Positions 23,267 through 34,266 are shown, counted from the first letter of the stretch. The stretch is DNA of 64,000 nt from a virus (IMGVR_UViG_3300045996_000464:7289-71288), one strand, 5' to 3'. Notes: generated from the sequence alone by a model not told the origin. Program-made: numbers and translations.

Positions 23267-23339
23267 ACGTGTGTAGCTCAGTCAGGGAGAGCGGTCGGCT
23301 TTCAACCGATGGTCGTGGGTTCAAATCCCACCACAATGC
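23267..23339 (+). tRNA. degenerate tRNA, TTC anticodon on a Lys-like body
   Basis: D, anticodon (CTTTCAA) and T arms intact; outer acceptor stem mispaired. Confidence 0.6.
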
Positions 23340-24688: not shown

Positions 24689-24761
24689 GCATCGGGCGCG
24701 TCCGGTAGATGCAGCCGAGCTTATATCTCGGCAAGAGCAGGTTCGACTCCTGACCGATGTA
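24689..24761 (+). tRNA. tRNA-Ile(TAT), non-canonical fold
   Basis: Acceptor GCATCGG/CCGATGT, 5-bp D-stem, 6-bp anticodon stem around CTTATAT. Confidence 0.8.
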
Positions 24762-24879
24762 CTCTAGTGTGGCTACGTTGTGCTTGCTGGCACCATGGCA
24801 GGAAACTGAGGCTGACCGTCCCTGGCGTAGATGCGCACCACACTGGAATATTAACACCCTCTCTGACGTTGGAGTAAGT

Positions 24880-25140
24880 ATGGAAAAGACACTGTACAAG
24901 TTCTACGCAGACTGGTGCGGGCCGTGCAAGATCATGAATCCAGTGGTTGACAAACTAGTAAAGACTCATGGTCTGGTGTTGGTGTCTGTCAACATTGACG
25001 ACGAACCACATCGCGCGCACGATCACGATGTACGATCCATTCCTACGCTCGTCTTAGAGCATGAGGATGGCAGCAAGACTCGCGTGGTAGGCGTAAGGCC
25101 GTACTATGCAACCGAGCAGGCGCTAGGCTTAACCGCTTAG
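24880..25140 (+). CDS. trxA: thioredoxin
   Basis: FYADWCGPCK active site and VRSIPT; GGAG RBS. Confidence 0.9.
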   Translation: MEKTLYKFYADWCGPCKIMNPVVDKLVKTHGLVLVSVNIDDEPHRAHDHDVRSIPTLVLEHEDGSKTRVVGVRPYYATEQALGLTA

Positions 25141-25152
25141 CGTTTGCACCAT

Positions 25153-25229
25153 AGACGTGTATACCCTCGCTCTGATAAGGCGTAGAAAGGTTAGCAGGTT
25201 ACACAGTGGTTCGAATCCACTCACGTCTA
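25153..25229 (+). tRNA. rearranged tRNA-Ile(GAT) with a D-loop-like segment 3' of the anticodon arm
   Basis: Perfect acceptor AGACGTG/CACGTCT plus A73, perfect T-arm, anticodon arm CGCT-CTGATAA-GGCG; no D-arm at the normal position. Confidence 0.7.
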
Positions 25230-25412
25230 CTGGCGAAAGCCAATGTCAGGGCAATGCCTATGGACGTAGCGCTAGCCGCGACCATGGAACCGAAGGTCAG
25301 ATTGGATCGTTCTTAGATGGCCGGACTTTTCCGGTCTGCCGTTCGTGAAAACTGAAACCGAAATCCATGAGATGCTAGTAGGCGCGGGTACTGGCACCCT
25401 TTTTAGAAAGAA

Positions 25413-25569
25413 TGGCAATGCAGTAAGTGATTACAATTGGAGAAAGTGGCCGAACCCAACGGTGACCACGAGAACGTCTTGACACAAAGTGGACGAAAGG
25501 CTTAATTAGCTGAGTAGGTAGAAGCGGGTCGAGCGAAAAGCGTGCGAGTTGATCGGTGACGCATTGCCA
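25413..25569 (+). ncRNA. candidate structured ncRNA upstream of tmRNA
   Basis: TGGCAATGC/GCATTGCCA closing helix; GAGAACGTCTT...GAGCGAAAA motif. Confidence 0.5.
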
Positions 25570-25576
25570 GTTTTAT

Positions 25577-25915
25577 GGGGATGAAATGGTATCGATTGCC
25601 AAGTAAATGGCATAGTTGCGAGCAGTGGTGACCGAGGCCACTTAAATCACGGTCAAACCAATAAATGCAGAGAACACTTCTGTAGCAGACACCTTCCCGG
25701 CCGAATGGGCTGAGGATCGTCTAGCCGTCGCTGCGTAAACGGATCAACAGAAACGCAGTCCAATGGGACACCCGCGAGGCCATCCTAAATACAACGGGTC
25801 TTGCTGATTAAGGCGGCTCTTGCAGCCGTAACGGGACGCGGCACCTTAGCCAGCTACGCTCGTAGACGCTAGTTGTTTCTTGTGTAAGACGCGAGTTCGA
25901 CTCTCGCCATCTCCA
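25577..25915 (+). ncRNA. ssrA: tmRNA; tag (A)AENTSVADTFPAEWAEDRLAVAA
   Basis: GGGGATG/CATCTCCA Ala-type acceptor, stemless D-loop, 3' T-arm; ATAAAT-GCA resume site at 25667; tag ends in AA-stop. Confidence 0.95.
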
Positions 25916-26027
25916 CTTAAGTGTATCGCCCGCCCAATGCCGGTTGCCGCTGGCTACGGGGCAACGGGTACGGCGGCAACCGTATTCACAATATCGGCTG
26001 TAGGCCGAGGCGGTAGGTTATGAATCA

Positions 26028-26100
26028 AGCGGGTTACCATTCTGGTGAAAACGGGAGTCTCATAAGCTCTCCCAGACGGGTTCGATCCCCGTACCCGCTC
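26028..26100 (+). tRNA. tRNA-Met(CAT)-like, atypical D-arm
   Basis: Acceptor AGCGGGT/ACCCGCT, loop CTCATAA, good T-arm. Confidence 0.75.
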
Positions 26101-26149
26101 CCTTCGTCGCCTATCCGGTTAGGCTAATAACCCCGGTGTGGCGGCTCCT

Positions 26150-26275: not shown

Positions 26276-26587
26276 ATGACCGTATACTACAGCCCTGAGC
26301 AGTGGAACCTAGAGCCGTTCGCGGAACTAGAGTTGACTGAGCCGGACTATAGCTTCGATCTGGTGGTCGTGTGGCGACACAAGGACACTGGCGAGTTGTA
26401 CTTCGCTCAAGACTCAGGATGTTCGTGCCCTTCTCCGTTCGAAGACTTCACTAGCATCGATGATCTGATCCTCTTGTCTACGGACAACGATTACGATTGC
26501 TTGATGCGTGTGACGGATCGAGCGGACAACCGCGCGAATCGTGTGAGCTTTCTACGGAAGGTTCACGCGGCGATGCAGACTGGATGA
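26276..26587 (+). CDS. hypothetical protein (DSGCSCPSPFE motif)
   Basis: GGGAGG RBS, 103 aa. Confidence 0.75.
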   Translation: MTVYYSPEQWNLEPFAELELTEPDYSFDLVVVWRHKDTGELYFAQDSGCSCPSPFEDFTSIDDLILLSTDNDYDCLMRVTDRADNRANRVSFLRKVHAAMQTG

Positions 26588-30638: not shown

Positions 30639-30712
30639 GCATCAGTAGCTCAGTGGTAGAGCATCCGCGACATGGTAGCGGAAGGTCATGGGTTCGATCC
30701 CCATCTGGCGCT
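30639..30712 (+). tRNA. tRNA-like gene with a 9-nt anticodon loop (GACATGGTA)
   Basis: Normal D and T arms; TCCGC/GCGGA stem; anticodon not assignable. Confidence 0.7.
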
Positions 30713-30830
30713 CTGGTGATACGTAACGGTGGCCTACGCTTCGGCGGACAATAGTGCGCCTAAGTCGTATCACCAACATTCAGGTCGGAGCTTACCCGAT
30801 ACACAGGAAATCCTATTGTTAGGAGCTACT

Positions 30831-31185: not shown

Positions 31186-31260
31186 GGTGAACGGGTAGCC
31201 TTTGGCGGCTACGGCGGGTTGTGATCCCGTTGGCAGCGAGTTCGATTCTCGTCGTTTACC
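31186..31260 (+). tRNA. tRNA-His(GTG), extended D-stem
   Basis: G-1:C73; GTAGCC/GGCTAC D-stem. Confidence 0.85.
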
Positions 31261-31265
31261 CTTAA

Positions 31266-31379
31266 GCGGACGTAGCTCAGTTGATGAGAGCATCGTGGCG
31301 TTAACCCACTCGCGCTAGAGCGCTCTAGGTGCGGTGGCTGTCACGAAGGTCGGAGGTTTGATTCCTCCCGTTCGCTCCA
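31266..31379 (+). ncRNA. tRNA-Gly-like body with a ~44-nt structured insert replacing the anticodon loop
   Basis: Acceptor GCGGACG/CGTTCGC+TCCA, D and T arms; TCGTG/CACGA stem extended into a long hairpin. Confidence 0.7.
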
Positions 31380-33955: not shown

Positions 33956-33957
33956 TT

Positions 33958-34257
33958 TGTAGCACAGACTGCGGCTGTCAGATTCAATCAACTGGCAGAG
34001 GAAAGTCCGGGCACCTGCTTGGCGGGAATTCAACCGCGCAAGCAAACGTTCACACGAGCCTAGGAGATGACCTTAACTTTTCGAAGTTAAGATGAATCGC
34101 TTAACTAGTAAGGTGGCGGGGTGCGACCCCAAGACGTGCGGCTGAGATGCTGACACAGGTAGGGGGCAGGTAGACGTGAGTCTCCCGCGATAAATAGCGA
34201 GTTAGATCGTAGTCCTTCCCCGCAAGGGGTTGACAGAACCCGGCTTATCGTGCTACA
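33958..34257 (+). ncRNA. rnpB: RNase P RNA (compact, divergent)
   Basis: P4 signatures GAGGAAAGTCCGGGC and ACAGAACCCGGCTTAT; P1 TGTAGCAC/GTGCTACA; P2 GACTGCGG/TCGTAGTC; P3 and P19 hairpins. Confidence 0.9.
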
Positions 34258-34266
34258 CTGTATTGC

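Follow-up and report, generated by a model that had tools for sequence, protein, structure and literature searches.

A 77-nt element on the + strand of a viral sequence (25153..25229) has the acceptor stem, anticodon loop and T arm of a tRNA-Ile(GAU) gene and no D arm in the usual place. This raises the question of whether it is a damaged tRNA gene or a tRNA whose D arm lies elsewhere in the molecule. The window, as the term is used here, is the whole 64-kb stretch of DNA that was analysed, part of a 71,288-base IMG/VR virus record rated ~48% complete. From the sequence comparisons below we consider it probable that the element belongs, as an intact gene, to a conserved and phage-borne family of non-circularly permuted tRNA-Ile, likely to be charged and to decode AUC and AUU.

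The element and its setting in a phage tRNA array

Genes in the window are those of a large tailed phage, including baseplate, tail-lysozyme, ribonucleotide reductase, DnaB helicase, DnaE polymerase, terminase and portal genes (PHROG). The polymerase shares only ~30% identity with its counterparts in Rhodococcus, Gordonia, Mycobacterium and Streptomyces phages. A tRNA array with 45 tRNA genes and a tmRNA gene (ARAGORN) spans 20.4-35.1 kb of the window. Directly upstream of the element is a thioredoxin gene (24877..25140, +, PHROG 22), which ends 13 nt before it and provided a synteny anchor for relatives, and downstream is the tmRNA gene (25577..25918, +; Rfam RF00023, 108.3 bits, and ARAGORN), in an order that is the same in two relatives (L006 and L007). 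No tRNA-processing or RNA-repair enzyme was found near the array (Pfam, 20 window ORFs; PHROG, 11 window ORFs), and PHROG scans of 11 window ORFs and six ORFs of MAG loci indicated no partner protein. Across carriers, the neighbours of the gene vary from thioredoxin in the window to a nucleotidyltransferase in Streptomyces cluster BE phages and tRNA genes elsewhere, with no recurring protein.

Read from its 5′ end on the + strand, the element begins with the acceptor stem 5′ strand AGACGTG (positions 1-7, 25153..25159), which forms 7/7 pairs with CACGTCT at 25222-25228, and it ends with the discriminator A73 (25229); CCA is not encoded at the 3′ end of the window copy. U8 and A9 (25160..25161) stand as in canonical tRNA and are invariant in 27/27 family members, an invariance that is partly forced by the search patterns and holds too for members found by synteny or by a covariance model. 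U10 A11 C12 C13 (25162..25165) would correspond to the D-stem 3′ strand (canonical 22-25), with A11-C13 pairing to G37-U39. C14, at canonical 26, and the anticodon arm follow (25166..25183); U15-U31 map to canonical 27-43, with a U15.U31 mismatch, four base pairs (25168-25171 with 25179-25182) and the loop CTGATAA, which holds GAT at 25174-25176 and has C32, U33, A37 and A38 in canonical numbering. In the linker A32 G33 A34 A35 A36 (25184..25188), N32 and G33 are assigned to canonical 44 and 45, and AAA is a surplus connector back to the D stem; its GAAA is invariant in 27/27 members, GAAA being fixed by one search pattern. G37 G38 U39 U40 (25189..25192), the equivalent of the D-stem 5′ strand (canonical 10-13), covaries with 25163-25165. 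The D-loop equivalent AGCAGGTTACA (25193..25203, A41-A51, canonical 14-21) places A41 at A14, G42 at R15, G45 G46 (25197-25198) at G18 G19 and A51 at A21, and A41, G45, G46, C50 and A51 are invariant in 27/27 members. C52 (25204..25204) maps to canonical Y48 as the Levitt-like partner of G42 (25194). The remainder is the T arm AGTGG/TTCGAAT/CCACT (25205..25221), with 5/5 pairs in the window copy, and the acceptor 3′ strand. Only TATACCCT separates the acceptor stem from the anticodon stem, which a stretch of 22 nt in turn separates from the T stem. Across the family the D helix has just three base pairs plus U.U, and the anticodon stem combines four Watson-Crick or G-U pairs with a U.U or U.C mismatch. 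The window copy keeps all family-invariant nucleotides and has no mispairs. A sequence-only reading of the window had pointed to the perfect acceptor stem, A73, the perfect T arm and the CTGATAA loop, all of which are read directly at 25153-25229, and had remarked that TATACCCT alone links the acceptor to the anticodon arm, in agreement with the sequence.

Standard tRNA models recognize this element poorly. The Rfam tRNA model RF00005 matches exactly 25153-25229 at a marginal 30.7 bits against a gathering score of 29 (E 0.00044, 1.4 kb searched), in an alignment where 4 nt stand for 15 D-arm model positions and the variable region gains 18 nt. ARAGORN gives no call for 25153-25229, neither in its run on the window nor with seven option sets, including mitochondrial mode. 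The folding energy is ordinary (z -0.85; 40/200 shuffles fold equally well), and the centroid fold of the window element already holds the ACC:GGT helix. Of the features that define RF00005, the element has the 7-bp acceptor stem with discriminator, the 5-bp T stem with T-psi-C loop, the 7-nt anticodon loop, U33 and purine 37, and it lacks the D stem-loop between position 9 and the anticodon arm. By these structural features the element fits the definition of a tRNA in all but the position of the D arm.

Several other elements of the array are unusual in their own right. Inside the array, a stretch of 308 nt matches bacterial RNase P RNA class A (33956-34263, +; 64.4 bits against a gathering score of 100, E 7e-18, model positions 1-367) and may be a reduced phage-encoded RNase P RNA. 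A tRNA at 31266-31379 (+; Rfam, 47.6 bits) has acceptor, D and T arms of good quality, but its anticodon loop carries ~35-37 surplus nt, among them the palindrome CTAGAGCGCTCTAG; ARAGORN reports it, as Ala(GGC), in intron mode only. A tRNA-like gene at 23270-23335 (+) has the anticodon TTC (Rfam, 52.6 bits, model positions 4-67) and is missed by ARAGORN because the outer three acceptor pairs are unformed; it has exactly the same 5′ flank and start (TAGACGTGT) as the permuted Ile gene. Atypical array tRNAs at 30639-30713, 24689-24762 and 26028-26102 are a tRNA-His(ATG), a tRNA-Ile(TAT) and one tRNA-Met(CAT), of which the tRNA-Ile(TAT) (24.5 bits, as tRNA-Sec) and the tRNA-Met(CAT) (24.8 bits) are both under the Rfam tRNA threshold. 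A Trp-CCA tRNA was not found within the window.

A conserved family with covarying helices

At least 27 distinct members with the same layout, all 76-77 nt long, were collected from the soil phage of the window, Streptomyces cluster BE phages, other viral contigs and MAG contigs; phage-like contigs with members had been binned into gut, rumen and other MAGs. The sequence-only reading had held that a lack of homologs or covariation and of aminoacylation would speak for a decayed pseudogene, and the members collected, together with the covariation described below, exclude that alternative.

Synteny provided one route to members. A scan of metagenome contigs with an alignment of thioredoxin relatives returned at least 80 loci, four of which (L004-L007) share the window neighbourhood of tRNA-Ile(UAU), thioredoxin and an Ile-type gene, followed by tmRNA in L006 and L007. 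In the slot after thioredoxin, L004 and L006 have a canonical tRNA-Ile(GAT) and L007 has the 77-nt permuted layout. The central 52 nt of the L007 gene differ from the window at three positions, and its acceptor and T stems differ from those of the window yet still pair, which makes it unlike a fresh pseudogene. These L007 stems are nearly equal to those of the canonical Ile-GAT genes in L004 and L006, whereas the cores differ. The shared shell points either to recombination that replaced the core within it or to host-specific constraints acting on it. In L005 the slot holds a tRNA with an 8-nt anticodon loop (CCTTATAA, L005:1054-1128), which ARAGORN reports as tRNA-???.

Pattern searches provided the others. 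A scan for the 5′ motif GTATACCCT-N4-CTGATAA returned at least 77 loci; 28 of the 77 listed have the full layout and 49 are unrelated matches. Many of the true matches are Streptomyces cluster BE phages (Samistivirus and relatives), where the element is flanked by a nucleotidyltransferase gene and an FtsK-like gene. With the 77 nt as a BLAST query, at least 40 Streptomyces phage records were matched, and in 38 of the 40 listed the site is unannotated. Public annotation is inconsistent among MK494112.1 (75265-75341; L197:1996-2072) and 38 other Streptomyces phage records. One genome per prokaryote species was also scanned, positions 8-15 and 37-40 being unconstrained in the pattern; of the 10 loci listed, eight are true members, all in MAG contigs. 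Canonical tRNA genes stand beside the element in 6/8 of these MAG loci and in 19/21 loci examined overall. Two extended MAG loci contain dense arrays (22 and 28 tRNAs per 20 kb). Their contigs, 363 and 410 kb long, also encode some phage-family proteins and are probably huge phages binned with bacteria. One member (L117) came from a 3′ motif scan of viral contigs.

A covariance model (R1) built from 25 distinct sequences, the window copy included, matched the window copy at 93.2 bits over positions 1-77 of 77, with the next-best window match at 21.9 bits. It was searched against 75 of the 115 loci L101-L215, leaving aside second loci on the same contig, near-identical copies of chance matches and loci overlapped by searched ones, as well as L203, L204 and L216-L224. 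Two further members missed by all patterns (89.2 and 78.4 bits, both outside the training set) and one degenerate copy were found in this way. Each of four whole records searched, L189's record having been left out, has exactly one copy. One 7.2-kb viral contig (L133) carries three permuted-type genes at 1495-1571, 2258-2330 and 2894-2970; the first has a GAU anticodon, the second is shortened and degenerate (44.8 bits), and the third has a UAU anticodon (78.4 bits). Another array with two permuted Ile genes includes a 96-nt ARAGORN tRNA-??? with a 4-letter anticodon (acca) (L179:1674-1769, -).

Other searches returned nothing further. The 1.6-kb neighbourhood had no nucleotide match in a phage collection, whether near or distant matches were sought; among viral contigs, the exact 22-nt 3′ end and a 26-nt central pattern each had 0 matches, and scans anchored on thioredoxin, the ORF at 26276-26587 and DnaE gave distant relatives or none. 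The thioredoxin-alignment scan of viral contigs listed 33 loci at ≤44% identity, with no family member by R1 over L084-L116. In four soil DNA runs searched with 24877-25600, only short contigs were recovered, and the pieces over the element were identical and added no variation.

In the alignment of 25 sequences, 98.2% of 500 pair cells are paired, against 70.3% in shuffled sequences and at most 44.8% with slid partners, and double-sided changes are found in 16/20 pairs. All seven acceptor pairs have such changes, with 98.3% of cells paired; the T stem has them in four of five pairs, with invariant equivalents of T54, psi55, C56 and A58, and the anticodon stem, which is 100% paired, in two of four. 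The ACC:GGT helix (25163-25165 with 25189-25191; columns 11-13 with 37-39) is paired in 75/75 cells of 25 homologues. Its pair 11:39 is AU in 18, CG in six and UA in one sequence, and G:C in a further member (L179b); 12:38 is CG in 20, UA in four and AU in one, and 13:37 is CG in all 25. Variants across the family (CTC/GAG, TCC/GGA, CCC/GGG, CAC/GTG and GCC/GGC) are always paired. RNAalifold, unguided, predicts the same structure including this helix, and the top mutual-information pairs are all helix pairs, 11:39 and 12:38 among them. The claim that GGT pairs with the upstream ACC and is followed by the D-loop-like AGCAGGTT is therefore borne out by full pairing, compensatory changes and RNAalifold, and the ACC/GGT covariation suggested as its check appears as double-sided changes at 11:39 and 12:38.

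The window copy has the features that define the family, namely the helix 11-13:37-39, then AGCAGGTTACAC (A-R-N-N-G-G-U...C-A-Y), and G42:C52. Columns 42 and 52 are G-C in 10, A-T in 11, G-T in two, A-C in three and G-G in one of 27 members, a covariation with a Fisher p of 0.005 that is uncorrected for relatedness. Equivalents of U8, A14, G18, G19, A21 and G10:C25 are invariant, and 32/77 columns are invariant in total. The main patterns fixed positions 7-15 and 20-26, or 20-26, 33-36, 41, 45-46, 50-51 and 58-60, so invariance at these columns is partly forced by the searches; just four members (L007, L117, L179b and L133c) were found without some of the pattern constraints. On the covariation and the spread of members, we regard a real conserved gene family with these helices as almost certain.

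Other pairings and origins were considered and rejected. Pairing of ACC with a GGT at 45-47 leaves eight broken cells and has zero double-sided changes. A partial duplication of the 5′ half of the T arm as the source of the insert lacks covariation, as does a class-II-type variable arm (33-36 with 47-50), in which 34:49 is mostly mispaired. An attP-type tRNA fragment does not fit a gene in which the 5′ acceptor strand is present and whose family is conserved in lytic-type phages.

A proposed exchange of two internal blocks and the predicted fold

The order of the element is 1-9, then D-stem 3′ strand, 26, anticodon arm and 44-45, then D-stem 5′ strand and D loop, then 48-76. By this mapping it is a canonical tRNA (1-9/10-21/22-47/48-76) in which blocks 10-21 and 22-47 are exchanged. 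ARAGORN recognized none of 26 native sequences, and all 26 were called tRNA-Ile (25 GAT and one TAT, the window copy among them) when columns 10-36 and 37-51 were exchanged in silico, with the swapped D-loop stretch accepted as a D loop in 26/26. The program is tolerant, as swaps with borders shifted by one position still gave 26 and 24 of 26 calls; at a shift of four positions, 2 and 10 of 26 were called.

In the proposed structure the core would be non-circularly permuted, with two middle blocks trading places and the ends unmoved. After U8 A9, the chain would run through U10 A11 C12 C13 in the role of the D-stem 3′ strand, position 26, the GAU anticodon arm, 44-45 and the AAA linker, and the D-stem 5′ strand G37-U40 and the complete D loop would come last, leading straight into Y48 and the T arm. 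The secondary structure would be a three-way junction in which the 3-bp D helix encloses the anticodon arm, and probably stacks on it, leaving the D-loop strand free to contact the T loop. Canonical tRNA is held together by the contacts U8:A14, R15:Y48 (Levitt), G18/G19 with psi55/C56, and G10:C25, and we infer an L shape with these same contacts for the permuted RNA. The fit of the direct links 9->22, 45->AAA->10 and 21->48 to this shape was reasoned from textbook tRNA geometry. We hold the block-swap mapping and the L-shaped fold with the usual tertiary contacts to be very probable. The sequence-only proposal of a rewired tRNA that rebuilds its D stem and elbow from a new strand order accords with the 26/26 block swap, the covarying D helix and the R15:Y48-like pair.

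Like canonical tRNA-Ile(GAU), the element has a 7-bp acceptor stem, A73, a 5-bp T stem, a T-psi-C-type loop, CUGAUAA, a length of ~77 nt and all tertiary-contact nucleotides, and it is found in phage tRNA arrays and in the same slot in relatives. Unlike it, the element has its D-stem 5′ strand and D loop 3′ of the anticodon arm, turning the cloverleaf into a three-way junction, an anticodon stem of four pairs and a pyrimidine mismatch, and a G-AAA linker and a direct 21->48 link in place of the variable loop. Mammalian mitochondrial tRNA-Ser(AGY) and nematode mitochondrial tRNA-Ser are described, in the part of the source available to us, as flexible molecules that have lost the D arm and the G18 G19/T-loop contacts (PMC7609411). 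The element shares with these D-armless tRNAs a short connector with no stem-loop between acceptor and anticodon stems, but has a moved, covarying D helix, a D loop with GG and a canonical T loop. It is not of the D-armless mitochondrial type, since the D helix and D loop are present and only moved.

Permuted backbones are known from tRNA mimics, which together with non-circularly permuted ribozymes come closest to the element as precedents, with the YrlA tRNA-like domain as a circular and the TYMV tRNA-like structure as a non-circular case; the permuted tRNA-like folds given in the available part of the 2024 ARTEMIS paper are mimics only (PMC11472068). As in these mimics, a tRNA-like three-dimensional shape, in the element a predicted one, would arise from reordered strands with the D-loop/T-loop elbow contacts kept. 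The mimics sit in larger RNAs and do not decode, whereas the element is a free-standing 77-nt gene with acceptor and anticodon arms in a tRNA array. The Rfam YrlA model (RF02553) has no match at the locus at E up to 10; an unrelated weak match lies at 31228-31296 (24.4 bits against 69).

Probable isoleucine identity and competing explanations

The anticodon loop reads CTGATAA in 25 members, whereas L179b has CTGATAC and L133c has CTTATAC, so that all anticodons are GAU or UAU and specify isoleucine. That the sole deviating anticodon, UAU, is also an isoleucine anticodon indicates that the design is Ile-specific. A73 is present in 17/17 members checked, and CCA is encoded in 3/17. No other GAT anticodon was found in the window by ARAGORN (45 tRNAs) or Rfam, which upholds, within the 64 kb, the view of the element as the only GAU reader of its tRNA set; a canonical Ile-GAU gene is possible elsewhere in the source genome, as the record is ~48% complete. 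Likewise, no GAU reader besides the permuted gene was found in a virus genome of 171 kb (rated 100% complete), where ARAGORN finds 38 tRNAs and zero Ile, or in a 49-kb stretch of Streptomyces phage Daubenski with its tRNA cluster. In two loci (L193 and L214) a canonical tRNA-Ile(GAT) is immediately downstream of the permuted gene, and the permuted form is therefore not simply a substitute.

Most likely, the RNA would be cut from the tRNA-array transcript and receive CCA, and host IleRS would charge it via the anticodon loop and A73, so that it reads AUC and AUU for the phage. We favour, with some reserve, charging with isoleucine and use in translation. For the fuller claim of a natural elongator tRNA with a rewired backbone, L-shaped, charged by IleRS and decoding, in large phages of Actinobacteria, Bacteroidota, Firmicutes and other bacteria, the balance of the comparisons tips only slightly in favour.

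The conserved tRNA shape could also serve a task other than decoding, such as a decoy or sponge for a nuclease, toxin or modification enzyme acting on tRNA-Ile, or a regulatory or priming RNA. The adjoining canonical tRNA-Ile(GAT) in L193 and L214 suggests a function beyond that of the canonical form, and the extreme conservation of the core across phages of very different hosts, with the 32 invariant columns, is consistent with such a role, as are the Ro-like RNA-binding protein, RNA ligase and polynucleotide kinase encoded by Daubenski and a PHROG 850 RNA-binding protein in L215. However, the decoding features are all kept (7-nt loop, U33, A37, Ile anticodon, A73, sometimes CCA, and 12 bp of acceptor plus T stem), the gene is the only GAU reader in three otherwise broad tRNA sets, it takes the place of a canonical Ile gene at a syntenic site, and no protein partner recurs beside it. 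We consider a non-decoding task unlikely.

An alternative fold would make the CUGAUAA hairpin the D arm and the GGUUAR stretch the anticodon loop of a tRNA-Leu (UAG in the window, UAA in EGole), and the two GenBank records of Streptomyces phage EGole, out of the 40 listed, do annotate a tRNA-Leu for codon UUA at the site. This fold is highly improbable: its pair 34:49 is unsupported, with A opposite A in 14, G in 10, T in two and C in one sequence, columns 43 and 44, which would serve as its positions 37 and 38, change freely and usually hold pyrimidines, and its spacer from acceptor to hairpin would be 8 nt. CUGAUAA and CUUAUAC are the exact Ile anticodon-loop signature, and the block swap reads as Ile in every case.

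The transcript might instead be cut and religated into canonical order to yield an ordinary mature RNA, as for the circularly permuted tRNA genes of some algae, which are permuted at the gene level only, their transcripts being circularised and recut into normal tRNA. Some carrier phages do encode an RNA ligase and a polynucleotide kinase, but the two ends of the gene already form an acceptor stem with each other, hence this is not a circular permutation, and a return to canonical order would take three cuts and as many ligations. At the block borders no conserved bulge-helix-bulge or splice-like motif was seen, and the junctions (U8 A9 U10; G33 AAA G37; C50 A51 Y52) are the most conserved parts, which fits a role in the mature fold, leaving religation scarcely credible. 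The genes of Cyanidioschyzon and other algae are cited in the accessible part of PMC10085705, and the element resembles them in having tRNA parts out of canonical order. It differs in that its ends are normally placed, with adjacent internal blocks exchanged and probably kept in the mature RNA; with both gene ends pairing as an acceptor stem, it is not a circularly permuted tRNA gene.

A decayed or rearranged pseudogene or a chance tRNA-like match, which the ARAGORN miss, the Rfam score barely over threshold and the unexceptional folding energy might suggest, has a negligible probability against compensatory changes in four helices among 27 distinct sequences from unrelated samples and hosts and a window copy with every family-invariant nucleotide and no mispair.

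Significance of a probable permuted tRNA-Ile

To our knowledge, all known decoding tRNAs share one strand order, and the reduced mitochondrial forms merely lose arms. The permuted tRNA-Ile, if it functions as proposed, would show that a natural tRNA can keep its fold under a changed topology, and would be the first tRNA, among very few natural RNAs, to keep its three-dimensional core under a changed strand order. It would also offer a new scaffold to structural biologists and tRNA engineers, and would extend the very recent idea of non-circular RNA permutation to a tRNA. According to the part of Eckert et al. 2023 available to us, no non-circular permutations were known in natural RNAs before that work, and no tRNA case is reported there among the non-circularly permuted ribozymes (PMC10085705). 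Those ribozymes, as far as that part describes them, share with the element a rearrangement of blocks within the molecule that keeps helices and conserved nucleotides, in a different class of RNA. No description of such a tRNA was found in the full-text literature searched, which consists of main texts with few subscription papers and includes the available parts of PMC7609411, PMC5389517 and PMC13092985, and the strand-swapped design seems to be undescribed so far.

For phage biology, a gene missed by standard finders means that phage tRNA complements appear without the AUC/AUU reader that they probably have. Cultured carriers exist in the Streptomyces cluster BE phages, which grow on S. griseus or S. 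lividans, making the proposal directly testable. In some phages the permuted form may offer something that the canonical form does not; that the design evades host tRNA nucleases is speculation. If the proposal is true, the restriction to isoleucine and the occasional canonical copy alongside would point to a specific pressure on tRNA-Ile during infection, which could be a host or phage factor that recognizes canonical D-arm connectivity, or altered decoding via the 26/44 hinge.
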